A stretch of 54,351 bases of DNA from Promethearchaeota archaeon (GCA_048940645.1 JBHLOI010000021.1:1-54351), one strand, 5' to 3'; shown: positions 39,733 through 54,351, counted from the stretch's first letter. The notes: a model not told the origin generated them from the sequence alone. A program made the numbers and translations.

Positions 39733-41421
39733 TTAAAATATTTGGGGACTCTGGTATTCTCCGAACACTTCTCTTAATACGTCGCAAATTTCTTGAATTG
39801 TAGCATAAGATTTAACCGTCTCTATCATCACTGGCATAATATTTTCTGTAGATTGGGCAATTTTTTTAAGTTCTTCTAATTTTTCTTTAACAATTTGATC
39901 ATCTCTTTTTCTTTTAAACTCTTTTAATGCTTCAATAATCTTCTTTTCTTCTTCTTGGTCCTGCTTAAATGTATCTATTTTACATTCTTCATCTGTACAA
40001 AATACATTTACGCCGATTACTTTGTTTAAGCTATGTTCAACTCTTTTCTGTTCTTTATATGCATTGTCTTGAATTTCTTGTTGAATGTAAGCTCTTTCAA
40101 TAGCTATTGGCATTCCACCCATTCTATCTATTTTTTCAATATATTCCATAGCTTTTTCTTCCAATTTTGAAGTTAAATATTCTATGTAATAAGAACCCCC
40201 TAAAGGATCAACCACATCAGTGATACCAGACTCATGAGCAAGAACTTGCTGTGTTCTTAGAGAGATTCTCACAGAATCTTCTGTAGGTAAGGCTAATGCT
40301 TCGTCTGCTCCACAAGTATGCAAGGATTGAGTTCCTCCTAAAATGGCAGCTAATGCTTGGAGAGTTACTCTTATGATATTTACATTTGGTTGTTGCGCAG
40401 TAAGGGTCACTCCAGCAGTTTGAGTATGAAATCGTAATCTTAGAGAATTTGGATCTTTTGCTTTAAATCTCTCCTTCATTATTGTTGCCCACAATCTTCT
40501 AGCTGCTCTTAATTTTGCTATTTCCTCGAAAAAGTAGTTATGTGTGGTGAAAAAGAAGGATAATCTTGAAGCAAATTCATCTATATCAATACCACGCTTT
40601 AAAACTTCCTCTACATAAGCAATACCGTCTGCTAAAGTAAATGCTATCTCTTGAACAGCATTACATCCCGCTTCCCTCATATGATAACCACTAATCGAAA
40701 TAGTATTGAAACGTGGTAACTTTTGAGAGCAATATTCGACAACATCTGCTACTAACCTTAATGATGACGTTGGAGGAAAGATATAAGTACCCCTTGCAAT
40801 ATATTCCTTTAAAATATCATTTTGAACAGTACCAGTTAATTGAGCAGGTTTAATACCTTGTTTTTCACCAACAGCAATATACATCGCTAATAATACTGCA
40901 GTTGGTGCATTAATAGTCATACTGGTCGAAACTTTATCTAGAGGAATGCCTTCAAAAACTTTTTCAAAATCCTTTAATGAATTTACAGTTACTCCAACTC
41001 TCCCTACTTCACCAATGCAAATTTGATTGTCTGAATTATAACCCATTTGAGTTGGAAGATCAAATGCAATTGATAATCCTTTTTGTCCTTGTGATATAAG
41101 ATATTTAAATCTTTGATTTGTTTTGGAGGCATCTGCAAATCCACCATACTGCCGCATTGTCCATACTTTTCCACGATACATATTGGGATACACTCCTCTT
41201 GTAAATGGCGGCTTTCCCGGAAACCCTATATCATTTAAATAATTAACATTTTCAATATCCTCTGGCCCATATAAATGTTTTAATGGAATCCCAGAAGGAG
41301 TTTCAAATTTATCTTTAATTTCTCCTTTTGCAACAAATTTATTTAAAATACTTTTTACCCATTCTTCGCTCTCAATTTTAATCTTATCAAGTTTATCTTT
41401 AGAAAACAATAATTTCACCAA
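39733..41421 (-). CDS. Methylmalonyl-CoA mutase, substrate-binding (large) subunit
   Basis: PFTRGVYPNMY, WTMRQYGGF (Tyr), GLSIAFDLPT, QNDILKEYIARG (Arg), ISISGYH, DPLGGSY; no B12-binding domain. Confidence 0.93.
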   Translation of the reverse strand: MVKLLFSKDKLDKIKIESEEWVKSILNKFVAKGEIKDKFETPSGIPLKHLYGPEDIENVNYLNDIGFPGKPPFTRGVYPNMYRGKVWTMRQYGGFADASKTNQRFKYLISQGQKGLSIAFDLPTQMGYNSDNQICIGEVGRVGVTVNSLKDFEKVFEGIPLDKVSTSMTINAPTAVLLAMYIAVGEKQGIKPAQLTGTVQNDILKEYIARGTYIFPPTSSLRLVADVVEYCSQKLPRFNTISISGYHMREAGCNAVQEIAFTLADGIAYVEEVLKRGIDIDEFASRLSFFFTTHNYFFEEIAKLRAARRLWATIMKERFKAKDPNSLRLRFHTQTAGVTLTAQQPNVNIIRVTLQALAAILGGTQSLHTCGADEALALPTEDSVRISLRTQQVLAHESGITDVVDPLGGSYYIEYLTSKLEEKAMEYIEKIDRMGGMPIAIERAYIQQEIQDNAYKEQKRVEHSLNKVIGVNVFCTDEECKIDTFKQDQEEEKKIIEALKEFKRKRDDQIVKEKLEELKKIAQSTENIMPVMIETVKSYATIQEICDVLREVFGEYQSPQIF

Positions 41422-41586
41422 CCTTGAAATGATTTCTACATATTTATTATAATTAATACAATTTACATTTATCCATTCTCTTACTATACCAAGAATTAAC
41501 TTTAATTGATTAATCTTTCATTTTTTTTCAAATAAATATGAATTTTTAAACGATAGATTTATATAGTATTCGTTCCATATAATATT

Positions 41587-41600
41587 GTACTATATAGTAC
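41587..41600. promoter_or_regulatory. Perfect 14-bp palindrome, candidate operator of the flavin reductase gene
   Basis: GTACTATATAGTAC lies between a TATA-like TTTATATA (about 41558-41565) and ATG 41624. Confidence 0.5.
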
Positions 41601-41623
41601 TATTGAAAATTATGGAGTAATAG

Positions 41624-42190
41624 ATGAAAAAGATTAAAACTGGTTGGAATTTACCCATTTTACCATTACCAATATGTATTGTAGGTGCACATGTAAATGG
41701 TAAACCAAACTTTAATACAGTAGCCTGGTTTAATATGCTAAGCTCAAAACCACCTTTAATTGGAGTAACTATGTTAAAAACGCATTACACTAATAAAGGT
41801 ATAAATGAGAATAAGTCCTTTAGCATTAATATTCCATCGTGTAGTATGGTTATAGCAACTGATTATTGTGGCCTATATTCTGGTGATAAAGTGGATAAAT
41901 CACAAATTTTTGATGTGTTTTATGGAGAACTTAAAACAGCTCCGATGATTAAAGAAGCCGTGTTTAATATTGAGTGTAAATTAGTTAATACTATAGACTT
42001 TAAAGATGATGATTTTTTTATTGGTGAAATTAACGAAGTCTATTCAGAAAAAAAAGAGTATCTTAAAAATCCATTAGATATAAAGAAATTAAATCTCTTT
42101 ATGTTTTTAATGCCAAATGGTCCATATTTGAAGGTTGGAGAGTATCTAGAAAAAGCATATGACGTTGGAAAAAATTATAAACCAAAATAG
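41624..42190 (+). CDS. Flavin reductase family protein (flavoredoxin-like)
   Basis: PLPICIVG, GKPNF, HYTN, DYCGLYSG, APMIKE, IECKL; GGAG SD. Confidence 0.88.
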   Translation: MKKIKTGWNLPILPLPICIVGAHVNGKPNFNTVAWFNMLSSKPPLIGVTMLKTHYTNKGINENKSFSINIPSCSMVIATDYCGLYSGDKVDKSQIFDVFYGELKTAPMIKEAVFNIECKLVNTIDFKDDDFFIGEINEVYSEKKEYLKNPLDIKKLNLFMFLMPNGPYLKVGEYLEKAYDVGKNYKPK

Positions 42191-42376
42191 TTAAAATTTC
42201 TATTTAATCTAATTTTATCTAATTTTTTTTTTAAGTGTATATTTCATTCCCTTAGAATGATTCCTATATTTTAATAATGATTTATATATTATGCATTTAT
42301 CATTCCTTTGTTAGATTAAGTATTTTTTTTAATTGGTCTTCTATAATTATTTAATTATCAAATAGGTATATAATAA

Positions 42377-43567
42377 ATGAAATTTATAGCATTTTTTGAG
42401 TTTCATATAGATAAGCTAGATAGTGTTCTTGAAACATGGTCAGAAACGAATCAAAATGTAAATAATTTAGAAATATATCCATTTCATATTTTGGCTGAAA
42501 GTTATAGAGAAATCACTGGTTTTGTTATATTCAAGTCTGAAACGATATTAAATCCTGAAATTGGGAAATTTTTAGCAAAGTACGTTCAAAAAGGTGTAGA
42601 TATTAAACTCATCCCAATCTGGAAAAACTCGAAACTTAAAAAGGAGCTCACGAAATTCATAGAAGCAAAACAAAAGACAGAACAACATTGGGAAGAATTT
42701 AAATACCAAAAGATTAAGAACATTGGTAAAACAAAGACTCTTGAAATTCTCCCACTTATAGATTGGCATTCTATAAGAGATGATTTAAAGGTTGAACTTG
42801 GTGTTTCTTATCTAATCAAGACAGATGAAAAAACAATACTATTTGATGTTGGATTGAACTCAGGAAAGAGTGACCCATCACCATTATTAATTAACATGGA
42901 TGTATTGGGGATCTTTATAGAGGACATTGATATTATTATTATTTCTCATAATCATGGTGATCATGTTGGCGGAGGAAAATGGTCTGAAAATAATACATTT
43001 TCTCTTTCAACTCATCAGATTGATCTTGGTGATATGAAGGTGTATACTCCAGTTCCAATGACTTATCCTGGATTGAATCCAATTTGCTCAGATAAACCTA
43101 TGGTTATTGCTAAAGGAGTTGCTACTATAGGAACGATATCTAATTCCTTATTTTTAATGGGTTTAGTACAAGAACAAGCACTAGCTATAAATGTTGAGGG
43201 AAAGGGAGTAGTGCTAGTAGTTGGATGTGGTCACCAAACCTTACCTAGAATAATTGAACGTACTGAAGCATTATTTGATGAACCTATTTATGGTCTTATC
43301 GGAGGGCTTCATTACCCAGTCAATGGTGGTCCTATTGAGATAATGGGATGGTTCCCTCATAAAATATTTGGAACTGGGAAGCTTCCATGGCAAGCGATTA
43401 CAATGGAAGAATTGGAAGAAAATATTAAATTTTTAAAGAGGAGAAACCCTAAGATAGTTTGTCTTTCTGCTCATGATAGTAGTGAAGTAAGTATAAAAGC
43501 ATTCCATGATGCGTTTCCAAAAGCTAGTAAAGATATTAACGTAGGAGAGAGAATTATCATCAGGTAG
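42377..43567 (+). CDS. MBL-fold metallo-hydrolase (MJ0301-like) with an extra N-terminal domain of about 100 aa
   Basis: LFDVG, SHNHGDHVGG, EQAL, GCGH, IGGLH, SAH. Confidence 0.85.
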   Translation: MKFIAFFEFHIDKLDSVLETWSETNQNVNNLEIYPFHILAESYREITGFVIFKSETILNPEIGKFLAKYVQKGVDIKLIPIWKNSKLKKELTKFIEAKQKTEQHWEEFKYQKIKNIGKTKTLEILPLIDWHSIRDDLKVELGVSYLIKTDEKTILFDVGLNSGKSDPSPLLINMDVLGIFIEDIDIIIISHNHGDHVGGGKWSENNTFSLSTHQIDLGDMKVYTPVPMTYPGLNPICSDKPMVIAKGVATIGTISNSLFLMGLVQEQALAINVEGKGVVLVVGCGHQTLPRIIERTEALFDEPIYGLIGGLHYPVNGGPIEIMGWFPHKIFGTGKLPWQAITMEELEENIKFLKRRNPKIVCLSAHDSSEVSIKAFHDAFPKASKDINVGERIIIR

Positions 43568-43913
43568 GTTCAAATACATAAGCATTTACTTCCTTACCAT
43601 CCAAATTATTACAAATTTTTTTATGAACAGCTTTTAATTTCATTCCTATTTTTAAATTATTTTGGGTTGTAATTTGTCCGATTGCTTTTATTCTATTTTC
43701 AAATTCTATCAGTCCAAGAGCATAAGAGCCATGATCCCTAAACTCTGCAGGAGGAGCAGTCAAAATTGTAAATGTTAATAGTTTTCCTTGACCTGATGCT
43801 TCTACTATTGAGAAGTTATCAGATTTACATTTTAAACATCTCAGATGGGTTTTATATTGTAAAAAACCACAGTTATTACATTTTCTCCATTCTAATATTT
43901 CTTCATTATTCAT
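43560..43913 (-). CDS. DUF35 Zn-ribbon/OB-fold protein
   Basis: KCNNCG...RCLKC, GQGKLLTFT, IGMKL; probable ATG 43913 (track TTG 43922). Confidence 0.85.
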   Translation of the reverse strand: MNNEEILEWRKCNNCGFLQYKTHLRCLKCKSDNFSIVEASGQGKLLTFTILTAPPAEFRDHGSYALGLIEFENRIKAIGQITTQNNLKIGMKLKAVHKKICNNLDGKEVNAYVFEPT

Positions 43914-43958
43914 TTTAATCAACGGTAATATTAAATATAACGAATATCATTAGTAAAT

Positions 43959-44516
43959 TTATCCCGTTAATTCGAGAGATAATGCTTTATGGTACAAGTC
44001 CTTGATAAGCGTGTTGAAGGCTTTAAATACTCCTTGACCTGTTTTTGCTGATGTATTAAAATACCCAAGAAAATTACGTTGGTCTACTATTTTTTGAGTG
44101 ATAATATGATCTAAATTGTTTTCATCCACTAGATCAATTTTATTAGCGAATAAAACAACAGGAATGCTCCCACAAAACCGTAAAATGTCATCGTGCCAAT
44201 TAGTAATGTTATTGAAACTACTTTTACCTAGATCATTTTCTTCAAGGCTATATACTATAATGGCAGCTCCACTATCCCTATAAAAAGAAGGTCGCAGAAA
44301 ACCGAAGTCATCTTGGCCAGCTATATCCCAAAATAATAATCTAATAGTATCTCCTTTAATTTCCTTATCATATTTAGAAAGTTGCGCACCGATAGTTTTT
44401 ATATATTCTGTATTAAATGTACCCTTTGTAAATCTTTTTAATAATGAAGTTTTTCCTACGCCCCAATTACCAATAACAGCAATCTTAAATTTAAAATCAA
44501 TACTAGTAGTGCTCAT
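43959..44516 (-). CDS. Rab-like small GTPase (paralogue 1)
   Basis: GNWGVGKTS, YIKTIG, WDIAGQ, NKID, TSAKTG. Confidence 0.95.
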   Translation of the reverse strand: MSTTSIDFKFKIAVIGNWGVGKTSLLKRFTKGTFNTEYIKTIGAQLSKYDKEIKGDTIRLLFWDIAGQDDFGFLRPSFYRDSGAAIIVYSLEENDLGKSSFNNITNWHDDILRFCGSIPVVLFANKIDLVDENNLDHIITQKIVDQRNFLGYFNTSAKTGQGVFKAFNTLIKDLYHKALSLELTG

Positions 44517-44562
44517 TGAATTGACTTATATAGAGATTAGTAAATTTTTTTGATTAATGAAT

Positions 44563-44590
44563 GATCAGATCTTTTTTAATATAAATCTTA
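44563..44590 (-). promoter_or_regulatory. Conserved GTPase promoter, copy 1
   Basis: + strand GATCAGATCTTTTTTAATATAAATCTTA aligns ungapped with 49264-49291 and 53184-53211; contains TTTATA on the minus strand. Confidence 0.6.
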
Positions 44591-44683
44591 ACTTATAAGA
44601 TAACTAATTATAACTTCATATTAAATAATCATAATCAAAAGATTGATTATTAAAAAAAAATATAAAAATCAAAAAAAAGCTCT

Positions 44684-45094
44684 TTAATTTATATATCTAA
44701 TTCCTTGAAAGTATTCTTGAGGAGAAAAGCCAAATAGTAAAGCCGCATGAAGTAATTGTAAATTAATTTCATCACTAGCACTAGAAATGCTTTCTTTGCT
44801 CATATCTGCTTCATTTAATTCTTTCAATCTTTTAAAAACCGAAGATTTAAGTTTCTTATACTTGCCAAAATATCCTCCATACGCGTTGAAAAGATTTACC
44901 ATCAACTCAATATCATTTTTAGGAAATCTTTTATAACATATTTCACAGATGACTCTACTATGAACTCCTGATTGGTAAAATGTTGCTCTATGTGTGATCT
45001 TCTCTTTACAAATATCACATTCTATTGAACTTAAATAGGAAGATTGATGTTGTTGTCCTTTTTTTTCCTTATCATCATGCAAAATTTGTTCCAA
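44684..45094 (-). CDS. Hypothetical protein with CxxC...CxxC zinc finger
   Basis: CDIC-x17-CEIC; TTG start with AGGTGA SD; A-run (minus-strand U-tract) after the stop. Confidence 0.78.
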   Translation of the reverse strand: MEQILHDDKEKKGQQHQSSYLSSIECDICKEKITHRATFYQSGVHSRVICEICYKRFPKNDIELMVNLFNAYGGYFGKYKKLKSSVFKRLKELNEADMSKESISSASDEINLQLLHAALLFGFSPQEYFQGIRYIN

Positions 45095-45141
45095 TTATAT
45101 ATCACCTTTCTAATTTTTTACCAGTCTTTAATTTCTTTAAA

Positions 45142-45357
45142 TTAAGTTTTAAATCTATCTGGATCTACATAATAATAATTTAAAGTTTCTTTCCATCTTT
45201 TCAAAGCTCTTTTTTTTCTAATCATTTTTGAATAAAAATCTTCTTTAATAATAGTGATGAGCTCACGCTTTACGTTCGAGTCATTTTCAGAATTTTCCTT
45301 AAAAATTTCATGCAAAAAATCTTTAATATCATACAAAATTATTTTACTTTCGATCAG
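45142..45357 (-). CDS. Small protein (71 aa) ending in RALKRWK-x3-NYYY-x2-PDxFK motif
   Basis: Track ORF 45142..45336 extended 7 codons to CTG 45357, which is 7 nt after GAGGTG. Confidence 0.75.
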   Translation of the reverse strand: MIESKIILYDIKDFLHEIFKENSENDSNVKRELITIIKEDFYSKMIRKKRALKRWKETLNYYYVDPDRFKT

Positions 45358-45375
45358 ACTATATCACCTCTCAAT

Positions 45376-45486
45376 CTAAAAATTCTTAATTCCACGTTTA
45401 AATTTGTCAGGATTTAAATAATAATAGTTAACCGATTTTTTCCACCTTTTTAAGGCACGATTTTTTTCTATTACATCTTCTGTCAA
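45376..45486 (-). CDS. Unannotated 36-aa microprotein MTEDVIEKNRALKRWKKSVNYYYLNPDKFKRGIKNF
   Basis: TTG start 7 nt after GGAGGTG; clear paralogy to the C-terminus of 45142..45357. Confidence 0.78.
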   Translation of the reverse strand: MTEDVIEKNRALKRWKKSVNYYYLNPDKFKRGIKNF

Positions 45487-45536
45487 AATTTAACACCTCC
45501 AATTTTTTTATAATTTTTTATATATAAATGATGTGT

Positions 45537-45580
45537 GGAGAGCTCAATTTGCTATACGGAATAAATCAATTGAGCTCTCC
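45537..45580. repeat. Perfect 13-bp inverted repeat (hairpin), 18-nt loop
   Basis: GGAGAGCTCAATT (45537-45549) / AATTGAGCTCTCC (45568-45580), GC-rich within an AT-rich intergenic region. Confidence 0.85.
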
Positions 45581-45647
45581 TTGATCTCGGCCCTCAATCT
45601 CTCTTATTTTGTTATTTTTTTAAATTATCGCTCAGGAAATATTATCC

Positions 45648-45890
45648 TTATATAACAGCTATAACTATCCAGGCAATTAGTATTAAACTAACAATTATAA
45701 CTGAATTAGTTAATATTACCTTAGTTAATCTAGATTTGCGGTTTATGTGTTTTTGAAACTTCTTAGTTCGTATATCTTTTCCATGAAAGTATACGAATCG
45801 GTGTTTTTCTCTTGAAATCTTATCATTTAAGCTTAGATTTTCCTCATTATTAGAATTTTTAACCAATTTTTCTACACTAACCTGCATCAT
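45648..45890 (-). CDS. Small tail-anchored membrane protein (80 aa)
   Basis: Basic soluble N-terminus; hydrophobic helix running to the C-terminus; AGGAG SD. Confidence 0.7.
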   Translation of the reverse strand: MMQVSVEKLVKNSNNEENLSLNDKISREKHRFVYFHGKDIRTKKFQKHINRKSRLTKVILTNSVIIVSLILIAWIVIAVI

Positions 45891-45933
45891 TTTTTTCTTA
45901 CTCCTTTTTTTTCTAAGATTAATTAGTTAGGGG

Positions 45934-45999
45934 GTGCATATATAGTTTATTCTTATGAACTATATCGGGAGTCTTATACTAATTATGGATTAGAGAACT
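45934..45999 (-). promoter_or_regulatory. Small-gene promoter A with 19-bp-periodic (GA/AT)ACT repeats
   Basis: GTGCATATATAGTTT (45934-45948), then GAACT 45957, ATACT 45976, GAACT 45995; homologous to 49491-49555 and 49764-49811. Confidence 0.6.
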
Positions 46000-46141
46000 T
46001 GCATTTTTCCTTAAAAATCTAAATTTAGAGAGTTCATAAGTATAGTAATGGTTTAGGAGGAATAAAGTTTAAATAGACTTTTATCTTATTATTAAATATT
46101 GACATAAAAATATCCCTAATAATAAAGTTAAAAGAAGATAT

Positions 46142-48046
46142 ATGGATGTATCAATTAATTATCCTCCAAAAGAACTATTAAAACCTACATTTGGTAGACG
46201 GAATTTTGAATTAATTATCCTATGGATGTTAAATAACAACGATTTTTGTACATGGGCAAGTCTTCAATCAAAAATTTCAAAGTCTACATTACAAGTTTAT
46301 TTAAAAAAATTAATGAAAAAGGGATTTATAACCAAAACTGCTTATAATGAATATCGAATTACCCCTGAGGGAAGAGATAAATATTATGAATTATCCGAAT
46401 TTAAAAGAGAAAAGAGAAGATTGAATTACCCCCCAAAAGTGATATTACGAAAAAGAAATTATGATCATTGGATTCTATGGATGGCTTTTAATAATAATTA
46501 TTGTAAATGGGCCGACTTTCTTCAAGAACCTCTTTCAATTAATCAATCTTCATTATCAATAAATATGAATTCATTAATTAATAATGGTTTTATAATTAAA
46601 GAAGAAAAAAAATATACCATCACTCAGTCAGGCAAGGCAGAATATTCTAGTATGTTGAAATATTATGATTTAGATAGACAAACAATTTTAGAGGAAGAGA
46701 GTAAGAGGATTAAGGAAATAACAAAAAAAACCATCAGTTTTTTTGATTATTACCAATTAGAGGATAAAGATATTAAATATAGGTATTTAAATAATGTTTT
46801 AAAGTTGCCTTACAAGGAAGTTGAATCAACATTAGAAAGTGAAGAGGAATTTAATAAAGTTTTACTATTTCTGTCAATTAATCATCCAGATGAGTTTCCT
46901 CATTATATATCTCCAAGAGAGTTTTCTCAAAAGTATGGTATTAAGCAGGTTAAACTTGAGTTTCTTATTCTTCGAATTGTTGAAGAAAATATTTACCCAA
47001 TCAAATTTTTTAAATTAAAGATAGGAAAAGACAAATACTATTATTTTCATGTAAATGAAAGATTAGAACGGATGCTTAATGCAATCGTTGAGGATCATAT
47101 CACTAAATTTACTTATTTGTGCAATTTATATGAAGAGGCACCAAAGGAAGCAATTTCATTATCACTAGAACTAATTATTAATGAAATATTGGCTGATATA
47201 TGTGGTCCACTATTCAATATTGGACTAAAAAAAAGCTTAAAAACATTTTTACCAGAATATATTGATTATTTGGCGTATAAAATTGAAGAAGAGAAGAAAT
47301 TAATCGATGTGTACGATAAATTAGAGGTCCTAATTTGGGAGAATATGTTAGATGTACTCCAATCAAAAACTTCGGGAATTTCGGATAATCAATTTAAAGA
47401 AGAACTTACAGAAATTAATAAAGCAATTAAACTAAACCCGAGAAATATTGATTTACATAATTCAAAAGTTAGAATTTTGATGTATTATGATCAATATCCT
47501 GAGGTATTAAAAGTATTAGACGATCTTCTCGAGATTTTTCCAGAAAATGAAAAGGATATTAAAATGAAAAAAGCATCTGTCCTTAAGAAAATGAGGAATA
47601 TTAAAGAGGGATTGATAATAATCAATGAGTTAATTAAAAAATATCCTGAAGACAACGATCTCCTTAGCTATAAAGCTTATTGGTTACAATATTTAAACAA
47701 AAAGGAAGAGGCATTTGACATTATGGAAAAGCTTATTAAAATTAAACCAGAACGGGGAATATATCATGATACTTATGGAGAGATTTTAATGAATTTTGGC
47801 TATTATGATAATGCCATTGAAGAATTTTCAAGAGCAATAGAAATAGAAAGTGAAGCGAGTTTTATATACCAAACTTATATTAAATCAGGAATTTGCTATA
47901 AAGAACTTGAAAATTATGATTTAGCAGTTGAAAATTTAAATAAAGGAAAAGAATTATTAAACCAAATTTCAAATGATATAGATACAAAACAAACATGGCT
48001 TTCAATCGCAAATCTCTTTCTTAGCGAAATAGAATATGAAAAATAA
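46142..48046 (+). CDS. Tandem winged-HTH + TPR protein (putative transcriptional regulator), paralogue 1
   Basis: Two N-terminal repeats NYPP...RN(Y/F)xxxILWMxxNNxxCxW...S(T/S)L...YxITxxG; C-terminal TPRs (YHDTYGEIL...AIEEFSRAIEIE). Confidence 0.85.
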   Translation: MDVSINYPPKELLKPTFGRRNFELIILWMLNNNDFCTWASLQSKISKSTLQVYLKKLMKKGFITKTAYNEYRITPEGRDKYYELSEFKREKRRLNYPPKVILRKRNYDHWILWMAFNNNYCKWADFLQEPLSINQSSLSINMNSLINNGFIIKEEKKYTITQSGKAEYSSMLKYYDLDRQTILEEESKRIKEITKKTISFFDYYQLEDKDIKYRYLNNVLKLPYKEVESTLESEEEFNKVLLFLSINHPDEFPHYISPREFSQKYGIKQVKLEFLILRIVEENIYPIKFFKLKIGKDKYYYFHVNERLERMLNAIVEDHITKFTYLCNLYEEAPKEAISLSLELIINEILADICGPLFNIGLKKSLKTFLPEYIDYLAYKIEEEKKLIDVYDKLEVLIWENMLDVLQSKTSGISDNQFKEELTEINKAIKLNPRNIDLHNSKVRILMYYDQYPEVLKVLDDLLEIFPENEKDIKMKKASVLKKMRNIKEGLIIINELIKKYPEDNDLLSYKAYWLQYLNKKEEAFDIMEKLIKIKPERGIYHDTYGEILMNFGYYDNAIEEFSRAIEIESEASFIYQTYIKSGICYKELENYDLAVENLNKGKELLNQISNDIDTKQTWLSIANLFLSEIEYEK

Positions 48047-48091
48047 TCTTGAGGAAAGATTCATAATTCATAATTTCCATTAAAAATGCAT

Positions 48092-48640
48092 TTATATTTG
48101 TGAAGATATTGCTTTATATTTATAATACAAATTCTTTATGATTGTATTAAATGCATCAATAACACCCTGGCCAGTTTTTGCTGAAGTAATAAAATATTCT
48201 AAAAATTTGTTTTTCTCAACTAATTCCTCAATCTTGGTAGTATCCAGACTCTCTTCGTCTATTAAATCAACTTTATTAGCGAAAATAACTACAGGGATAT
48301 TACCGCAATATCTTAGTAAGTCCTTATACCAATCTAATATATGGTTAAAACTAGTTTTACCAAGCTCATTTTCTTCGAGGCTATACACAATTATAGCTGC
48401 TTTACTGTCTTTGAAGAAAGAAGAATGTAAGAAGTGGAAATCATCTTGGCCAGCGATATCCCAGAAAAATAATTTAATGTTATCTCCATCGATTTTTTTA
48501 TCGTATACAGAGAATTGCGCCCCCATGGTTTTTATATAATCTTCCTGAAAGGACCCCTTTGTGAATTTTTTAATCAAAGATGTTTTTCCTACTCTTCCGT
48601 CCCCAATAACAGTAATTTTAAATTTAAATTTTTCTTTCAT
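48092..48640 (-). CDS. Rab-like small GTPase (paralogue 2)
   Basis: GDGRVGKTS, WDIAGQ, NKVD, TSAKTG. Confidence 0.95.
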   Translation of the reverse strand: MKEKFKFKITVIGDGRVGKTSLIKKFTKGSFQEDYIKTMGAQFSVYDKKIDGDNIKLFFWDIAGQDDFHFLHSSFFKDSKAAIIVYSLEENELGKTSFNHILDWYKDLLRYCGNIPVVIFANKVDLIDEESLDTTKIEELVEKNKFLEYFITSAKTGQGVIDAFNTIIKNLYYKYKAISSQI

Positions 48641-48659
48641 TGAATTTCATTTTTCTAAA

Positions 48660-49217
48660 TTATATGGACATAGCTAACTCTTTATATTTTCGATATAACT
48701 GATCTATGATCGCATTAAATGCTTCTATAACTCCTTGTCCTGTTTTTGCTGAAGTTACATAATAAGCAAGAAAATTATTATTTTCAACTATTTCTTGAAC
48801 TTTCGCATGATCAATATTGTTTTCATCGACTAAATCTATTTTATTAGCAAAAATAACCACTGGAATATCTCCACAAAAATGTCTAATGTCTTCATGCCAG
48901 TTAGCAATATGATTAAAACTATTAGTACCAAGATCATTTTCTTCAAGACTATATACGATTATTGTTGCTCTAGATTCTCGATAAAATGAAGGTCTCAGAA
49001 AACCAAACTCATCTTGACCAGCGATATCCCAAAATAATAATCTAATACTATCTCCTTCAATCTCTTTATCATATTTAGAAAATTGCGCGCCAATAGTTCT
49101 TATATAATCCTGGTTAAAGCTGCCTTTTGTGAACTTTCTAATTAATGATGTTTTCCCTACTTTCCCATCGCCAATTACCGTAATTTTGAATCTAAATTCG
49201 TGCCTAGTAGTTGCCAT
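48660..49217 (-). CDS. Rab-like small GTPase (paralogue 3)
   Basis: GDGKVGKTS, WDIAGQ, NKID, TSAKTG. Confidence 0.95.
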   Translation of the reverse strand: MATTRHEFRFKITVIGDGKVGKTSLIRKFTKGSFNQDYIRTIGAQFSKYDKEIEGDSIRLLFWDIAGQDEFGFLRPSFYRESRATIIVYSLEENDLGTNSFNHIANWHEDIRHFCGDIPVVIFANKIDLVDENNIDHAKVQEIVENNNFLAYYVTSAKTGQGVIEAFNAIIDQLYRKYKELAMSI

Positions 49218-49263
49218 TGGATTATGTTGTTGAATTCATATTAAAAAATTTTGTTTAAAGGAA

Positions 49264-49291
49264 GATTAGATTTTTATTAATATAAAATTTT
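49264..49291 (-). promoter_or_regulatory. Conserved GTPase promoter, copy 2
   Basis: + strand GATTAGATTTTTATTAATATAAAATTTT. Confidence 0.6.
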
Positions 49292-49354
49292 GGTAAACAA
49301 GATAATTATTAAACAGGATAAATAGAATAAAAATAGTTAAAAAAAAAAAGGATT

Positions 49355-49444
49355 TTAATATGCTCGGAAATTATTACCTAAAATTTCAGCATCATTCTTA
49401 ATCTTAATCTTTTTTATATCTTCAATTTTCTTTTCTTTTCTCAT
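49355..49444 (-). CDS. Unannotated 29-aa microprotein MRKEKKIEDIKKIKIKNDAEILGNNFRAY
   Basis: ATG 8 nt after GGTG; own conserved promoter (49491-49555); U11 tract (A-run 49339-49349) just after the stop. Confidence 0.65.
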   Translation of the reverse strand: MRKEKKIEDIKKIKIKNDAEILGNNFRAY

Positions 49445-49490
49445 TTTTTTATCACCAATGGTATGTTTCTTAAATAATAATTAGAAAGAG

Positions 49491-49555
49491 TTACATATTT
49501 AGTTTTTATTGCGGAACTTCGATGGGATTATTGAACTATAATGGGGATAAATACT
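49491..49555 (-). promoter_or_regulatory. Small-gene promoter B
   Basis: TTACATATTTAGTTT (49491-49505), then GAACT 49514, GAACT 49533, ATACT 49551. Confidence 0.62.
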
Positions 49556-49653
49556 AAATCTTAAAAAAATAATAAGTCTATAAAAGAAATATTAAAGAAA
49601 TATGTTCAAAAAGATTATATTAAAGAAAAATAGAAAAAAAAAGATTTAAATTT

Positions 49654-49725
49654 TTAAGCAGTTCTGCCATAACAATTCCAATACCCTTCTAGAGGTAATG
49701 GTTTTTTGAATTTTTTTGGGTTCAT
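49654..49725 (-). CDS. Unannotated 23-aa microprotein MNPKKFKKPLPLEGYWNCYGRTA
   Basis: ATG 7 nt after AGGTG; own conserved promoter (49764-49811); U9 tract (A-run 49634-49642) downstream. Confidence 0.68.
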   Translation of the reverse strand: MNPKKFKKPLPLEGYWNCYGRTA

Positions 49726-49763
49726 ATTTTATCACCTTTTTCTTAATTATTAATTATTTGCAA

Positions 49764-49811
49764 TTACATATTTAGTTTCTTTATTAATACTTCCATGAAT
49801 GTTCCGAACTA
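49764..49811 (-). promoter_or_regulatory. Small-gene promoter C
   Basis: TTACATATTTAGTTT (49764-49778, identical to the 15-mer in promoter B), then ATACT 49787, GAACT 49806. Confidence 0.62.
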
Positions 49812-49893
49812 CTTTAAGAGTAAAGTAATAAAAATATAAATAGAATCAATACCTATTTAAAAATAACAATAAAAAATATTATTTTCATACATT

Positions 49894-52392
49894 ATGAGCA
49901 TTATAAACTATCCCCCAGCAGAGATTATTAACCCTCCTAGATTTGGGAAAAAAAATTATGAGCATATAATTCTCTGGATGTTATATAACAATGAAGATTG
50001 TGAATGGTCAGATTTTCTAACAGAACCGTTAGAAATCCCAACCTCTACATTACACAGGCATCTTGATACTTTGAAAAGGAAAGAATATGTGGATAACTTT
50101 AGCAGAGGCCACTATAAAATTACTTCAGAAGGTAAAAAGCGGTATCACGAATTATCTAGCGCCAAGGACAAGAAAAGGAGGTTAAGTTATCCTCCTAAAT
50201 TGATCAAAAACAGAAGGAATTATGATCATATAATACTTTGGATGCTTTATAATAATAACTATTGTAAATGGTCTGATTTTCTCGAAGAACCACTGTTAAT
50301 TAATCAATCTTCCTTATCTAAAAATTTGAATCTATTAATAAATAATGGAAGTGTAAGTAAGGAAAATAAAGAGTACAGAATTACCCAATCTGGTAAATTA
50401 GAGTATTCCAGAATGTTAACTTTATATGATTTAGACAGACAGTCGATTTTAGAAGAAGAAAGCAAAAGGATTGAAGAAGTCACTAAAAAAACATTAGGAT
50501 TTTTCAAGCGTTATAAAATAGAAGATGATGACATTCAATATCGATTTCTCAATAACATTTTAAAATTGGATTATTCAAGAGTAAAATCAATGTTAACAAA
50601 TGAGGAAGATTTTGATAAGATTTTACTATTTCTTTCTATTAATCACCCGAATTATTACCCTAATTACATTTCTCTTGAGGATTTCTCAATTAATTATAAA
50701 ATTAAAAAGACCACATTGGAATACTATATTGAGGAGATTGTTGAAAATGACATTTATCCCATTAAATTTTTTAAACTGAAGGTTCCACCTGATAAATCTT
50801 ATTACTTTCAATCAGATGAAAAGATAGAGAAGGTTTTAGGTGCAGTAATTGAAGATTATGTAACAAAATTTACATATTTACATAAATTATTTGGCGAATC
50901 CGAAGCTATATTCTCTTCATTGAACATTCCTTCCATAATTGATAAAATCTTAGACGAGATTTGCGAGACTCTATTTAATAAGGATTTAAAGAAACCACTA
51001 GAAGAATTCTTACCAGAATATATCAATTATTTAGCTTATAAGATTGAAACTGAGAGACCTTTAAGAGACATATATGATAAATTGGAAGGGATAATTTGGC
51101 AAGAAATTCAAGCAATAAATTTATTCAGCCAACAACCTCAATGTGTTGAGCAAGATGGTATGATACATTATATTGATCCAGAAATATTAGGAATATTAGA
51201 ACCTATTTATTCTAAGAATACAAGACCTATATATAATAAGATAAAACCTCTCATAGTTGAGAAAGAGTATGAAAAAGTTTTAAAAATTATAGATTCAGCT
51301 TTAAATTCAAATCAAAGAAACATTGGACTTATTAGTTTTAGAGCAAACATTCTTCTTTATTTAAATAAATTTCAGGAAGTAATAGATTATTTAAACAATA
51401 AAATACAAATTCCAAGTGATATTGAAAGAGAAGAAGAATTTATCCCTTATTTTTTTCTTTTAGTTTTCTGCTATTTGACTTTTGGAGATTTTAAAGAATC
51501 TTTAAAATTGGTTGATAAAATGGGAGAATATTATTCAGAACATCCATTTTATTATTTAGTTAAAGGAATTTTATACGGCTATAATATAATTTATCAATTC
51601 AATGTTGAAAAAGGAAAAGAATCAGATTTTATTATCAATATTGAAAAAGCAATTTCCCTAGATGCTTCCCCTTCAAATAAAGCTAAGTACTATCAGTTAA
51701 AGAGTAATATCTTACTTCAAACAAACAAAGAAGAGGAATCAGTTGAGGCAATTGATAATGCTATTAGTTTGAATTCTAATGATATTGGATTATATCATTC
51801 TAAAATTAAAATTTTAATTCAATATAGTCGATATAATGAAGTATTATTATTAATAAATAAGATGCTTGAAAATTTCCCTGCATATGAGAAAGATCTTACT
51901 ATAAAGAAAGCCTCTGTACTTAAAAAAATGCAAAATGTTGACGAAGGCCTTGAAATTATAGAAAACCTCCTCATTAAATATCCTGATGATGATTATCTTC
52001 TTCTTAACAAAGCTTATTGGCTACAATATTTAAAAAGAAAAGAAGAGGCAATTGAAACAATAAAAGAACTTATAGATCGGTCACCAAAAATAGGCACTTT
52101 CCATGATACATATGGAGAAATTTTAATGTATTTTGAGGAATATAAGAAAGCTGCAGATCAATTTGAAAAAACAATTGAATTAGAACCAAATAATTGGTAT
52201 ATTTACCAAACATATATTAAATTGGGAATATGTTATAGGGAGCTAGAGTATTATAAACTAGCAATTGAAAATCTAGAGAAAGGGAAAGCACTCACAAATA
52301 GTTGTTTTGTGCAATTTGATTTGAAACAAAAATGGCTTGTAATTGTTGATCTTTTTCTTGCAGAGCTTGCTGAATTGGGAGAAGAATTTTGA
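49894..52392 (+). CDS. Tandem winged-HTH + TPR protein (putative transcriptional regulator), paralogue 2, with extra TPRs
   Basis: Same architecture as 46142..48046 (NYPP...NYEHIILWML...IPTSTLHRHLDTL...YKITSEGK; YDLDRQSILEEESKRI); 198 aa longer in the TPR region. Confidence 0.85.
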   Translation: MSIINYPPAEIINPPRFGKKNYEHIILWMLYNNEDCEWSDFLTEPLEIPTSTLHRHLDTLKRKEYVDNFSRGHYKITSEGKKRYHELSSAKDKKRRLSYPPKLIKNRRNYDHIILWMLYNNNYCKWSDFLEEPLLINQSSLSKNLNLLINNGSVSKENKEYRITQSGKLEYSRMLTLYDLDRQSILEEESKRIEEVTKKTLGFFKRYKIEDDDIQYRFLNNILKLDYSRVKSMLTNEEDFDKILLFLSINHPNYYPNYISLEDFSINYKIKKTTLEYYIEEIVENDIYPIKFFKLKVPPDKSYYFQSDEKIEKVLGAVIEDYVTKFTYLHKLFGESEAIFSSLNIPSIIDKILDEICETLFNKDLKKPLEEFLPEYINYLAYKIETERPLRDIYDKLEGIIWQEIQAINLFSQQPQCVEQDGMIHYIDPEILGILEPIYSKNTRPIYNKIKPLIVEKEYEKVLKIIDSALNSNQRNIGLISFRANILLYLNKFQEVIDYLNNKIQIPSDIEREEEFIPYFFLLVFCYLTFGDFKESLKLVDKMGEYYSEHPFYYLVKGILYGYNIIYQFNVEKGKESDFIINIEKAISLDASPSNKAKYYQLKSNILLQTNKEEESVEAIDNAISLNSNDIGLYHSKIKILIQYSRYNEVLLLINKMLENFPAYEKDLTIKKASVLKKMQNVDEGLEIIENLLIKYPDDDYLLLNKAYWLQYLKRKEEAIETIKELIDRSPKIGTFHDTYGEILMYFEEYKKAADQFEKTIELEPNNWYIYQTYIKLGICYRELEYYKLAIENLEKGKALTNSCFVQFDLKQKWLVIVDLFLAELAELGEEF

Positions 52393-52593
52393 ACAAGAAT
52401 ACAAGATTATACTAGTATGTGGTAAAATTAATGATATAAAAAATTCGATTTTGAATAAAACTAAATTCTCAACCATACATTTATCTTATTCGTTTACTTT
52501 CTCGTATAAAATTAAAATTTATTTTATAAACGGTTGGGTGCCATGAAATTAAGATTTCATTATATCTCGGTTATAAAAGGTAATAAATGGATT

Positions 52594-53148
52594 TTATAAC
52601 TCAGAGGATAGATCCTTATATTTGTCATATAAATTCTCAATGATTGCATTGAAAGCTTCATGAACTCCTTCACCCGTTTTTGCTGAGGTTATATAATAAC
52701 CAAGAAAATTTCGCTCTTTTATAACATCTTGAATTAAGGATTTATCTAAACTATCTTCTTTAATTAAATCAACTTTATTTGCAAACACTACAATAGGTAT
52801 CTCTTCACAATATTGTTTAATATCATCATGCCAGTCTGTTATATGTTCAAAGCTTCGTTTACCTAAATTATTTTCTTCAAGGCTATAAACTATAATAGCT
52901 GCTCTGCTTTCTCTGTAAAAAAAAGGACGTAAAAAGAGGAGATCATCTTGCCCTGCTATATCCCAGAATAATAATCTAATCATATCTCCACTAATTTCTG
53001 CATCAAACTCAGAAAATTGTGCACCGATAGTTTTAATATACTGTTTTTGAAACGTACCTTGTGTAAATTTCTCGATTAAAGAAGTTTTTCCTACACTACC
53101 ATCGCCTATAACAATGACCTTAAATCCGAATTTTTGAGACTCGTTCAT
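52594..53148 (-). CDS. Rab-like small GTPase (paralogue 4)
   Basis: GDGSVGKTS, WDIAGQ, NKVD, TSAKTG. Confidence 0.95.
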   Translation of the reverse strand: MNESQKFGFKVIVIGDGSVGKTSLIEKFTQGTFQKQYIKTIGAQFSEFDAEISGDMIRLLFWDIAGQDDLLFLRPFFYRESRAAIIVYSLEENNLGKRSFEHITDWHDDIKQYCEEIPIVVFANKVDLIKEDSLDKSLIQDVIKERNFLGYYITSAKTGEGVHEAFNAIIENLYDKYKDLSSEL

Positions 53149-53183
53149 CTATTTTTCAAATAGATTTCAAATTATTAAATTAA

Positions 53184-53211
53184 GATTAGATTTATTTTAA
53201 TTTAAAATTTT
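53184..53211 (-). promoter_or_regulatory. Conserved GTPase promoter, copy 3
   Basis: + strand GATTAGATTTATTTTAATTTAAAATTTT. Confidence 0.6.
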
Positions 53212-53409
53212 AGTCACTGTGAATCTTGAGTTCTTCAAAAATTAGAAGAAAAAAGAGAAAAGAAAAAGGAAAAAAAAATATTTAATGATTTTTTAACCAA
53301 GGATTAATTTTAAGTAAAACAAATTTTCACGAAGTTCGAATTAAAGAAAAAATTCAAAAATAAAATTAAAAAGTTGGGATAGGATTAAAATTTACAGCAA
53401 TTATAATTT

Positions 53410-54351
53410 TTAGTTATATTTTGGTAAACTTAATGGAATAGTTTTTTCAATAAATATTTCATCTATTAATGTTTTAAGAGAAGGGATATCATTTATTTGT
53501 ATTTCCTTGTTTACTTGGTAAAATTTATCAAAAGTCTGCCATACAAGCTCATCGCTCTGTAATTTATCGATAAAGTATGTAATCCTCTGTTGGGCGGAAT
53601 ACGATTGACCTTTGAATACATAACACATTAAAAAGGGTGACACAGAATTCATAAGGAGCGTGTGTTCCCCAAAAATTGCTCGATCAAGTCCTTCCGAGAA
53701 CTTATCACTTATGAATGAATTGATAGTGGTAAAAAACCCTCCGAAAAGGTAATCTTCAAAAACTTGATCCTTCACAAATGATTGAGAAAATATGGGTCTA
53801 CCTCCCTCTGATACAATTAAAAGAAGTACAGGTTCTTCATCCAAAAGTTCAGGAGCTTCTAATGCTCGCTTTCGGAACACTTTCTCCATTTTTTCACTTA
53901 ACCGAGCAAATTCCATACGTTCTTTTAATGATGAAGTTGATTCTTTTAAGTTTTCCCACATGTTTAATTGTTTAAGAAGTTCATCATGTTCATTTGATAT
54001 TTTCATGGCTAACAAACTAATTCCGTAGTTTTCAGCAATTTGTTGCCCTTTAGTCAATAAACGTCGAGCTTTTTTCAAATCCAATGCAATTAAAGCCAAT
54101 TTGGCTTGTAAAAGATAAGTTTCTCCCATAATCCAGTACGAATGCGATTTTTCAGCAAGTTCTAATAGTTGACCAAGAAATTGGTTTAGCTCATCCAACA
54201 CATTTAGGTCATTAGTCATATGTAACTCAGTTAAGAGCAATTCACATAAATTAATTAATACTCTATACCTCAGAGAATGATCTATCTTCTCATTTTCAAG
54301 GAGTTGTATTAATATTTCTTCAGCTTTACCCCGATCACGAGCTCTAAGACT
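53410..54351 (-). CDS. TPR-like helical-repeat protein with C-terminal longin-like domain (5' end off window)
   Basis: Frame is open from the window end (SLRARDRGKAEEIL...). Helical repeats, then PVLLLIVSEGGRPIFSQSF...LFGGFFTTINSF...LMCYVFKG, a beta-beta-alpha-beta-beta-beta-alpha longin-like pattern. Confidence 0.8.
   Translation of the reverse strand, partial: SLRARDRGKAEEILIQLLENEKIDHSLRYRVLINLCELLLTELHMTNDLNVLDELNQFLGQLLELAEKSHSYWIMGETYLLQAKLALIALDLKKARRLLTKGQQIAENYGISLLAMKISNEHDELLKQLNMWENLKESTSSLKERMEFARLSEKMEKVFRKRALEAPELLDEEPVLLLIVSEGGRPIFSQSFVKDQVFEDYLFGGFFTTINSFISDKFSEGLDRAIFGEHTLLMNSVSPFLMCYVFKGQSYSAQQRITYFIDKLQSDELVWQTFDKFYQVNKEIQINDIPSLKTLIDEIFIEKTIPLSLPKYN

Follow-up and report, generated by a model that had tools for sequence, protein, structure and literature searches.

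The 54,351-nt stretch of Promethearchaeota DNA analyzed here (hereafter the window) is the entire contig C24 of a Lokiarchaeial metagenome-assembled genome (MAG; 3.83 Mb, 89.6% complete). The 20 sequencing runs listed for the region are all recorded as DNA metagenomes, with no RNA run among them. From position 43,959 to the contig end, the window may hold two adjacent units of a lineage-specific regulatory and signalling module, in which a regulator, micro-genes for proteins of 22–36 residues, a Rab-like GTPase and a protein combining tetratricopeptide repeats (TPR) with a longin domain would be joined in a feedback loop, an interpretation that we regard as evenly poised. Its best-supported core concerns the regulator, a protein with tandem winged helix-turn-helix (wHTH) domains and TPR, which we name REG (R1, R2 and their homologues). 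REG would act as an autoregulating transcription factor for the micro-genes and would be evolutionarily locked to one clade of Rab-like GTPases and to the TPR-longin protein.

Neighbourhoods were counted for 53 REG genes in 44 loci, after 40 further 20-kb loci had been added. A GTPase of the subfamily present in the window lies within 3 kb of 39 of these REG genes; a GTPase is placed divergently upstream of 34 REG genes and convergently, at most 1 kb downstream, of 16. If a TPR-longin gene within 5 kb is accepted as well, 44 of the 53 REG genes have one or the other neighbour. A preliminary description of the window, made from its sequence, had proposed that homologous neighbourhoods be scored for GTPases, and the linkage was borne out by these counts, with the TPR-longin link conserved too. 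Across REG from the micro-genes, a TPR-longin gene often comes ahead of such a GTPase; this order is found in the window, on contig C9 of the same genome and in at least five other genomes. As a whole, the layout recurs in the genera g1 and g12, with GTPases 60–75% identical to those of the window (G1–G4). REG and GTPase copy numbers expand together in both genera, and subclades of the GTPase tree follow REG context. REG clades, operator classes and GTPase subclades have diversified together.

The N-terminal 410 residues of REG were found in 109 of 400 genomes of the phylum; among the 108 positive genomes besides the window's own, 106 belong to the window's family (134 scored). REG is usually multi-copy, with size classes of ~635, 840 and 1000 aa. 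The REG tree comprises two well-supported clades (Shimodaira–Hasegawa-like approximate likelihood ratio test, SH-aLRT, 99 each), with R1 in clade I, and R2 and the copies on contigs C9 and C126 in clade II. That the two units arose by recent tandem duplication is ruled out, as R1 and R2 are 58% identical and sit in different ancient, widely conserved clades; the duplication of the module must therefore be older than the genus split. The layout is ancient and characteristic of one Lokiarchaeial family.

Other REG copies of this genome differ in their surroundings. On C9, a copy of 53% identity follows TPR-longin and GTPase in convergent orientation and forms a third arrangement of the R2–G4–TPR-longin type, and the C126 copy (57% identity) lies beside thiolase genes with no GTPase. 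C11 carries a REG-like copy without the TPR part and C109 carries REG fragments. The latter (C109:1-3807; L008–L010 and L021) are three REG-like N-terminal pieces, two with an in-frame TAA, and could be pseudogenes or a product of mis-assembly. In the closest relative (genome G240), only short fragments orthologous to G4 and TPR-longin stand behind the R2 orthologue (L052:2505-2849), followed by a partial REG, which resembles local decay or rearrangement.

Arrangement of the two units

Pfam searches and checks of the open reading frames (ORFs) placed four GTPases, two wHTH–TPR genes, the small ORFs and the TPR-longin gene where the preliminary description had located them. The Ras-family GTPases G1–G4 (E 1e-40 to 1e-42) are on the minus strand throughout, and R1 and R2, on the plus strand, combine N-terminal HTH_45/HTH_34 winged-helix matches with C-terminal TPR. 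The features are as follows (features listed with no strand are marked unstranded):

43959-44516, minus: G1, Rab-like GTPase of the REG-linked subfamily, P-loop GNWGVGKT (Pfam Ras 1.2e-40; 69% identity to G3); clusters with GTPases divergent from clade-I REGs
44563-44585, minus: private GTPase promoter of G1, TATA TTTATATTAA plus AGATCTGATC
44684-45094, minus: Zn-ribbon-like protein, 136 aa, CxxC...CxxC; no Pfam family above threshold; kept in genus relatives and in genus g12 (L084, 56% identity)
45142-45336, minus: s64, 64 aa, long form of the gamma micro-protein family (family f12), ..ALKRWK..NYYYVDPDRFK
45376-45486, minus: s36, 36 aa, gamma-family micro-protein ..NYYYLNPDKFKRGIKNF, with TTG start, GGAGGTG Shine–Dalgarno (SD) sequence and its own TATA
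45648-45890, minus: s80, 80 aa, C-terminal transmembrane helix, first gene divergent from R1; 80–85% in three genus relatives
45937-45948, minus: small-gene TATA-like box, plus-strand reading CATATATAGTTT
45948-46044, unstranded: R1 operator region, with GAACTATATCGGGAGT at 45957-45972 and inverted arms TATTCTTATGAACT (45948-45961) and AGTTCATAAGTATA (46031-46044)
46068-46077, plus: R1 REG-type TATA TTTAAATAGA; TATAAATAGA/TTTAAATAG are common to REG paralogues
46142-48046, plus: R1, clade-I REG, 634 aa; wHTH1 22-85, wHTH2 107-174, helical middle 179-431, TPR 436-633
48092-48640, minus: G2, Rab-like GTPase, second gene behind G3 with a 19-bp spacer and no promoter motif of its own
48660-49217, minus: G3, Rab-like GTPase (Pfam Ras 1.3e-42)
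49264-49286, minus: private GTPase promoter of G3
49355-49444, minus: m29, 29 aa, beta-family micro-protein ..IEDIKKIKIKND.., with GGTGAT SD sequence and T11 tract past the stop
49494-49548, unstranded: m29 promoter, TATA-like box at 49494-49505 and two R1-type sites, GAACTTCGATGGGA (49514) and GAACTATAATGGGGA (49534)
49654-49725, minus: m23, 23 aa, alpha-family micro-protein MNPKKFKKPLPLEGYWNCYGRTA; start 168 nt from the R2 ATG
49767-49844, unstranded: R2/m23 control region, small-gene TATA at 49767-49778, GTTCCGAAC (49801-49809) overlapping GAACTACTTTAAGAGT (49806-49821), REG TATA TATAAATAGA at 49835-49844
49894-52392, plus: R2, clade-II REG (Pfam, REG tree), 832 aa, with ~200 additional TPR residues
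52594-53148, minus: G4, Rab-like GTPase behind the TPR-longin gene, convergent with R2; 70% identity to the C9 copy
53184-53206, minus: private GTPase promoter of G4
53410-54351, minus: TPR-longin, of which the contig end leaves the C-terminal 313 aa and cuts off the N-terminus

According to the preliminary description, the same layout occurs twice. The genes and their recurrence are real, but G2 does not represent an independent convergent GTPase of the first copy; its 19-bp distance from G3 and the missing GTPase promoter motif identify it as the second gene of the leftward G3 unit. The leftward unit beside R2 therefore reads m23, m29 and then G3–G2. G1, G3 and G4 each have a promoter of their own. 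Similarly, the small genes do differ between the two copies within the window, as had been noted, but they belong to conserved families and some of them are tandem duplicates.

REG, its operators and the micro-proteins

The AlphaFold2 (AF2) model of R1 (predicted local distance difference test, pLDDT, 82.7) contains two winged helices of the order helix–helix–helix–strand–strand, a helical middle and a TPR solenoid (436-633); a third winged-helix-like unit is possible within the helical residues 179-431. The tandem winged helices match the Pfam families HTH_45, HTH_34, MarR and TrmB, with sub-threshold NCBIfam matches to the archaeal DNA-binding wHTH families Sso10a, Sta1 and Lrs14. Residues 1-410 retrieved archaeal wHTH regulators, WhiP and FilR1-like proteins from the ESM Atlas, which serve as leads only (feature scores ≤0.84, template modelling scores <0.3). 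The top 50 Foldseek matches of whole REG were generic, often peptide-binding TPRs, including CTPR, OGT, APC/C, PEX5 and Tom70; this search yielded TPR matches only, with none for the wHTH pair or the middle (179-431).

Upstream of REG, a common architecture is found across genera, which runs from the start of a divergent SD-led ORF through a minus-strand TATA (ATATAGTTT type), a repeat operator and a plus-strand TATA (TATAAATAGA or TTTAAATAG) to the REG start. The divergent ORF, 22–30 aa long, begins 162–173 nt from the REG ATG in 11 loci. Operators of class A, AACTT-N6-AAGTT, go with the wHTH1 helix/wing RLSTLSKYL..SRGHY, which applies to 11 of 12 members of the ~633-aa clade-II group. Class B, (G/A)ACTC-N6-GAGTC, goes with (H/R)STLSIYL..FNQY in clade I and in the 840-aa group of g12, and class b, GAACT-N6-GGAGT, is the R1 variant with the same wHTH1 as class B. 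Class C, TTCCGAA, is found together with PT(S/G)TL(H/S)RHL in R2 and the C9 copy. Both operator half-sites shift symmetrically with the wHTH1 helix, and the wHTH2 helix INQSSLSKN is almost invariant. Such covariation is suggestive, being the signature expected when a winged-helix protein occupies its own operator as a dimer. Inverted arms with a GAACT/AGTTC core flank the R1–s80 intergenic region, and the two R1-type sites in the m29 promoter hint at cross-control by R1.

For the small-gene promoters, the preliminary description had claimed a shared TATA-like box and an operator-like motif. The box was recovered without exception: CATATWTAGTTT occurs three times in 54 kb (0.12 expected), solely in the three small-gene promoters. 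The motif keeps a fixed position across loci of several genera, but it is not enriched within this genome. It had further been proposed that the wHTH–TPR protein controls the divergent micro-genes. A conserved repeat operator between back-to-back TATA boxes, with half-sites that covary with wHTH1, argues for this at the level of sequence. REG very probably binds DNA to regulate both its own promoter and the divergent micro-genes, and most likely acts as an operator-binding autoregulator.

Elsewhere in the genome, a perfect type-A operator GAACTTCAAATGAAGTT stands beside a REG-type TATA next to a 192-aa gene (C65:6654), and type-A-like sites flank the TPR-less REG-like gene (C11:76963 and C11:78237-78530), with an 84-aa gene downstream of one site; these genes are possible regulon members.

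The micro-ORFs were surveyed as SD-led ORFs of 18–49 aa in the intergenic space of the sampled loci and fall into three families. The alpha family (..KKPL..GYWN.Y) includes m23 and a g12 homologue. The beta family, with ..I(K/I)(I/V)(R/K)N(D).. and LERIERIKIKNDLEEH, includes m29, and the gamma family, with ..(D/N)FLLNP.K(F/Y)KFG.KDL and a stop immediately after, includes s36, s64 and longer forms with RALKRWK. Both m29 and m23 possess a TATA-like box, a GGTGAT SD sequence and an oligo-T tract past the stop, and are to all appearances monocistronic cassettes. Promoter repeats of 59 nt (71% identity) mark the pair as tandem duplicates, which also applies to s64 and s36 (shared 81-nt repeat, 73% identity). 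Start, SD sequence, length and stop of the micro-ORFs are all conserved. Variation in the gamma family includes synonymous changes (Leu CTT/CTA/TTA, Asp GAT/GAC), with 257 differences at third, 223 at first and 151 at second codon positions. Frame and length of m29 are kept despite changes in 7 of 29 residues in a relative of ~90% identity, and the sole difference in m23 is synonymous. This conservation rules out that m23, m29 and s36/s64 are chance ORFs; a 26-aa ORF that precedes the REG gene on C126 is unconvincing as a gene.

All 23 distinct micro-proteins are basic (net charge +1 to +7) and hydrophilic, with a longest hydrophobic run of ≤4 residues and a maximal 9-residue Kyte–Doolittle mean of ≤1.42, and a signal-peptide-like region is absent from every one of them. 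Sec-type secretion, SHP-like export and pheromone signalling are therefore unlikely.

Two further observations concern the surroundings of these genes. Between the end of s80 and the s36 TATA lies a perfect 13-bp inverted repeat, GGAGAGCTCAATT-N18-AATTGAGCTCTCC (45537-45580), which may form a terminator hairpin or be bound by some other factor. The left flank (39733-43922) is metabolic and syntenic in other genomes; it comprises a methylmalonyl-CoA mutase gene (39733-41421), a gene for a metallo-β-lactamase (MBL)-fold protein (42377-43567) and, directly behind G1, a gene for a ChsH2/DUF35-like protein with an oligonucleotide/oligosaccharide-binding (OB) fold (43560-43922).

The GTPases, the TPR-longin protein and possible modes of action

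The motifs GxxxVGKT, WDIAGQ, NKxDL and TSAK, representing the canonical G1–G5 set, are invariant in 34 sequences. By sequence, the best solved relatives of the GTPase G3 are Rab23 (1e-31), the Thorarchaeota Rab 7EZB (3e-30), Rab43, Rab21 and Rab5. A C-terminal Cys prenylation motif is absent, with no Cys in tails such as ..LSLELTG, ..AISSQI, ..ELAMSI and ..DLSSEL. The subfamily is lineage-specific, with 60–75% mutual identity and ≤38% identity to the genome's other ~55 Ras-like GTPases, and accounts for ~7 of ~64 Ras-like loci in the 3.8-Mb genome. In G1 and its genus orthologues (L052:10659-11213, L053:3195-3749 and L054:8125-8679) the P-loop reads GNW(G/R)VGKT, with Trp at the equivalent of Ras Gly12, and in every other subfamily GTPase it reads GDGxVGKT; the Trp may alter GTP hydrolysis and possibly yields a locked or slow GTPase.

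The second promoter type that had been ascribed to the GTPases proved to be private to them. TTTAWATTAAWAWARATCT occurs three times in the whole genome, precisely upstream of G1, G3 and G4, with G2 lacking the motif. The promoter motif TTWAWATW-N5-11-CTRRTYT (for instance TTTATATTA..CTAATCT), located 57–85 nt from the ATG, is found at 33 of 47 GTPase genes vs 1 of 360 other genes in the same loci. Having their own promoter, the GTPases are not simply co-transcribed with the micro-genes. The subfamily is also broader in distribution than REG; it is present in 131 of 135 family genomes, with 2–12 copies in g1 and g12 and a single copy where REG is absent or rare.

For the TPR-longin gene, the full-length paralogue on C9 (651 aa) has matches to TPR_12 and TPR_MalT, the latter below the curated Pfam cut-off (E 6e-11, 42.6 bits vs 45). 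The 313 C-terminal residues encoded in the window were modelled by AF2 at a pLDDT of only 72, and contain a ββ-α-βββ-αα domain at residues 173-301 (strands 173-181 and 186-191, helix 197-220, strands 224-227, 230-237 and 240-247, helices 251-266 and 268-280). VIA-align matched this domain to synbindin (2zmv; Z 11.8, root-mean-square deviation (rmsd) 3.2, 123 aligned), AP2 sigma (Z 11.8) and Sec22 (Z 11.3, rmsd 2.5, 117 aligned). Z ranged from 10.3 to 11.8 over synbindin, AP sigma, Sec22, VAMP7 and TRAPP (3cue_C, 7b6d_H), and CPLANE was matched as well. Longin-domain alignments and TPR matches together show that the gene had been labelled correctly.

That the TPRs of REG respond to the neighbouring GTPase had been part of the preliminary proposal, and structure prediction for R1 with G1, GTP and Mg gave an ipSAE (interaction prediction score from aligned errors) of 0.56 (runs 0.56, 0.54 and 0.61) against 0.00 for the best control. 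The runs agree in at least 50% of contacts, with a partner pLDDT of ≥82. Among solved complexes, 58 of 80 attain the mark applied, as do 2 of 110 mismatched pairs; scores ≤0.60 include only 7 of those 80 solved complexes and both passing mismatches. The signal is a weak one. Three points favour coupling to the GTPase as the TPR input: in both REG clades no other neighbour is as constant, REG and GTPase have co-diversified, and this weak complex signal points the same way. The link between REG and GTPase is likely functional. Direct binding of the GTPase by the REG TPR is possible but short of an even call, and binding of the micro-proteins by the same TPR is doubtful.

In the mechanism that we propose, the winged helices of REG would bind the operator, with wHTH1 setting specificity, and REG would thereby control its own gene and the micro-genes. 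The TPR solenoid would be the input domain and would sense how the module stands through binding of the adjacent GTPase, the basic micro-proteins or both. TPR-longin may provide, with its longin domain, a guanine nucleotide exchange factor (GEF) or GTPase-activating protein (GAP) platform for the same GTPases. Overall, small-GTPase signalling and transcription would be joined in a feedback loop. A more specific version, in which REG is a direct GTPase-effector transcription factor, appears somewhat unlikely; here, the GTP-bound GTPase, loaded or unloaded by TPR-longin, would dock on the TPR and switch operator binding, and the micro-proteins would compete or cooperate as TPR ligands.

The micro-proteins could instead be the only input, acting inside the cell as ligands or co-regulators of REG (anti-activator or co-repressor peptides in the TPR groove), with the GTPases as co-located, independently regulated cargo. 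The ..FGxKDL tail at the gamma C-terminus would then sit in the groove as in carboxylate-clamp TPRs. The fixed distance of the micro-ORF from clade-II REG, the conserved families and C-terminus with a stop right behind KDL, the resemblance of the REG TPR to the peptide-binding TPRs of PEX5, Tom70 and OGT, and the separate GTPase promoter all speak for such sensing. However, many clade-I REG loci have a GTPase and no micro-ORF, the GTPase is the most constant neighbour and the TPR similarity is generic, and we consider this explanation unlikely. A cell–cell signalling system of the RRNPP type, with micro-proteins as quorum pheromones that undergo export, processing and re-import before the TPR senses them, would account for the rgg/shp-parallel layout (HTH plus TPR, tiny ORFs divergent from it across an operator, and numerous paralogous cassettes) and for the M3 oligopeptidase F (PepF) gene that is convergent with 8 of the 53 REGs, in other genomes. 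It is very improbable nonetheless, given the properties of the 23 micro-proteins described above, the lack of a recurrent Opp-type or exporter family in the neighbourhoods of 24 mapped loci, the different HTH type and the absence of RRNPP proteins from the top 50 structural matches of REG.

Linkage might also exist without coupling, REG being an ordinary autoregulator of small genes to which GTPase and TPR-longin stay close by block duplication and retained synteny. Separate promoters, the occurrence of the GTPase subfamily without REG in several genera and the synteny of metabolic genes (methylmalonyl-CoA mutase, DUF35-like) are in line with this idea. Yet the linkage is kept in two REG clades that split before the divergence of g1 and g12, with rearranged orientation, divergent or convergent, and variable intervening genes; copy numbers co-expand in g1 and g12, the GTPase tree tracks REG context and the complex prediction is weakly positive, which renders mere linkage quite improbable. 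In a cluster resembling those for ribosomally synthesized and post-translationally modified peptides (RiPPs), finally, the micro-ORFs would encode precursor peptides matured by a B12-binding radical S-adenosylmethionine (SAM) enzyme, a SET-domain methyltransferase and the M3 peptidase, with REG as pathway regulator. Genes for the radical SAM enzyme (734 aa), the SET protein (158 aa) and PepF do recur in other genomes beside small ORFs and TPR-longin, but they are not in the window and are missing from many loci, transporter or immunity genes are not present, and conservation at the C-terminus of gamma along with Lys-rich, hydrophilic peptides is atypical of leader–core precursors. This makes a RiPP-like cluster very improbable.

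Several points weigh against the proposed feedback loop and its operator-based core. The covariation between operator and helix is only suggestive because about three evolutionary changes lie behind it, and these are confounded with phylogeny. Operator patterns are too short to rise above chance in this genome, with 20 occurrences of AACTT-N6-AAGTT vs 11–15 in shuffled sequence and 23 of ACTC-N6-GAGT vs 24–35; operators are therefore not callable from this genome alone and a regulon is not definable. REG may not regulate the GTPases, as their own promoter shows no recognisable REG operator. The GTPase does not need REG either, since a single-copy subfamily member is found in genera where this REG query detected none or few (g7, 0 of 2 genomes with REG; g11, 3 of 10). 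Conversely, some REG clades have no GTPase within ~8 kb, namely the ~830-aa form of genus g2, L080, L082, L090 and the C126 copy, and many clade-I REGs lack a micro-ORF. The neighbourhood counts come from a locus sample that favoured places with two nearby REGs and from related genomes that are not independent.

Outside the window, PepF genes are convergent with clade-I REGs, often with a SET-domain gene (158 aa) alongside (L058:7515-9305, L059:8786-10576 and seven further g12 loci). A gene for a B12-binding radical SAM protein (~734 aa) recurs by TPR-longin and small conserved proteins (L058:13810-16014, L063, L065, L066 and L067), among them f4 (84 aa, ending ..IHYRNYG.F) and a long gamma form, which lends these loci a RiPP-like flavour.

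Significance and comparison with known systems

Asgard archaea encode dozens of Ras/Rab/Arf-like GTPases together with many longin and roadblock proteins, all of which figure centrally in hypotheses about how eukaryotic membrane trafficking arose. To our knowledge, almost nothing is known of the partners of Asgard small GTPases. For one GTPase clade, the module supplies a dedicated candidate transcription factor whose operator is defined, a longin-type protein as candidate regulator, micro-proteins that are conserved and a private promoter. As its components are present in more than 100 genomes, it offers a rare set of candidate partners for archaeal small GTPases, and full-text searches of the literature turned up no description of it. 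Three archaeal micro-protein families not described before come with the module, as does a look-alike, without homology, of the HTH–TPR/peptide cassettes of bacteria. If REG were a direct GTPase effector, a small GTPase would act on transcription in a single step, modulated by peptides, in the archaea most closely related to eukaryotes. An Asgard small GTPase clade would then, for the first time, have its cognate regulator, effector and target genes assigned.

The RRNPP comparison had been presented as analogy rather than homology, which fits the data: the layout matches, and the HTH type and peptide export features do not. As in the RRNPP cassettes of Bacillota and phages (Rgg/SHP, PlcR/PapR, NprR/NprX, PrgX, Rap/Phr, AimR/AimP), an N-terminal DNA-binding domain and C-terminal TPR are united in one polypeptide, tiny divergent ORFs adjoin (as in rgg/shp) with a repeat operator between, and several paralogous cassettes occur per genome. 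An oligopeptidase gene lies nearby in some genomes, here PepF; PepO and PepF degrade pheromones in Bacillota. In contrast, REG carries a tandem winged helix instead of a single XRE-type HTH, with no HTH_3/XRE match in Pfam and no RRNPP protein among its top 50 Foldseek matches. The REG-side micro-proteins are basic, hydrophilic and devoid of an export signal, there is no recurrent Opp gene, and the module has an archaeal host and Rab-like GTPases and TPR-longin as constant companions. Rgg2 (4yv6, Z 11.3) and PlcR (2qfc, Z 10.7) appeared among generic helical matches of the TPR-longin protein, which is not diagnostic.

Large bacterial regulators of the MalT and AfsR/SARP type combine a DNA-binding domain with a TPR-like sensor solenoid. 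REG shares this combination, but has no STAND NTPase and differs in the type and position of its DNA-binding domain. The module GTPases keep the G1–G5 motifs of eukaryotic Rabs and the Thorarchaeota Rab 7EZB, to which they are related in sequence, whereas they form a lineage-specific subfamily without the C-terminal Cys prenylation motif. In actinobacteria, the multi-copy conservons (CvnA-D) comprise a sensor histidine kinase, a DUF742 protein and a Ras-like GTPase with a roadblock/longin-superfamily protein. Both systems are multi-copy paralogous cassettes that pair such a GTPase and such a protein with a signalling protein; conservons, however, are bacterial and include no transcription factor, TPR or micro-ORFs.

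According to a structural survey (PMC10933270), genes for small GTPases in the Lokiarchaeon MK-D1 generally do not share operons with roadblock, longin or TRAPPC3 genes, which hinders the matching of GTPases to GAPs or GEFs; the survey also speculates about transcription-factor-specific regulation. Against this background the linkage of TPR-longin and GTPase is unusual, and as an exception to the MK-D1 pattern the module makes GTPase–regulator matching testable. Like the longin/roadblock platforms TRAPP–Ypt1/Rab1, Mon1–Ccz1, CPLANE, Ragulator–Rag and MglB–MglA, it encodes a Ras-superfamily GTPase directly behind a longin-fold protein. Unlike them, its longin domain, with a putative GEF or GAP role, is fused to a long TPR array, and the pair stands beside a dedicated candidate transcription factor and micro-genes.

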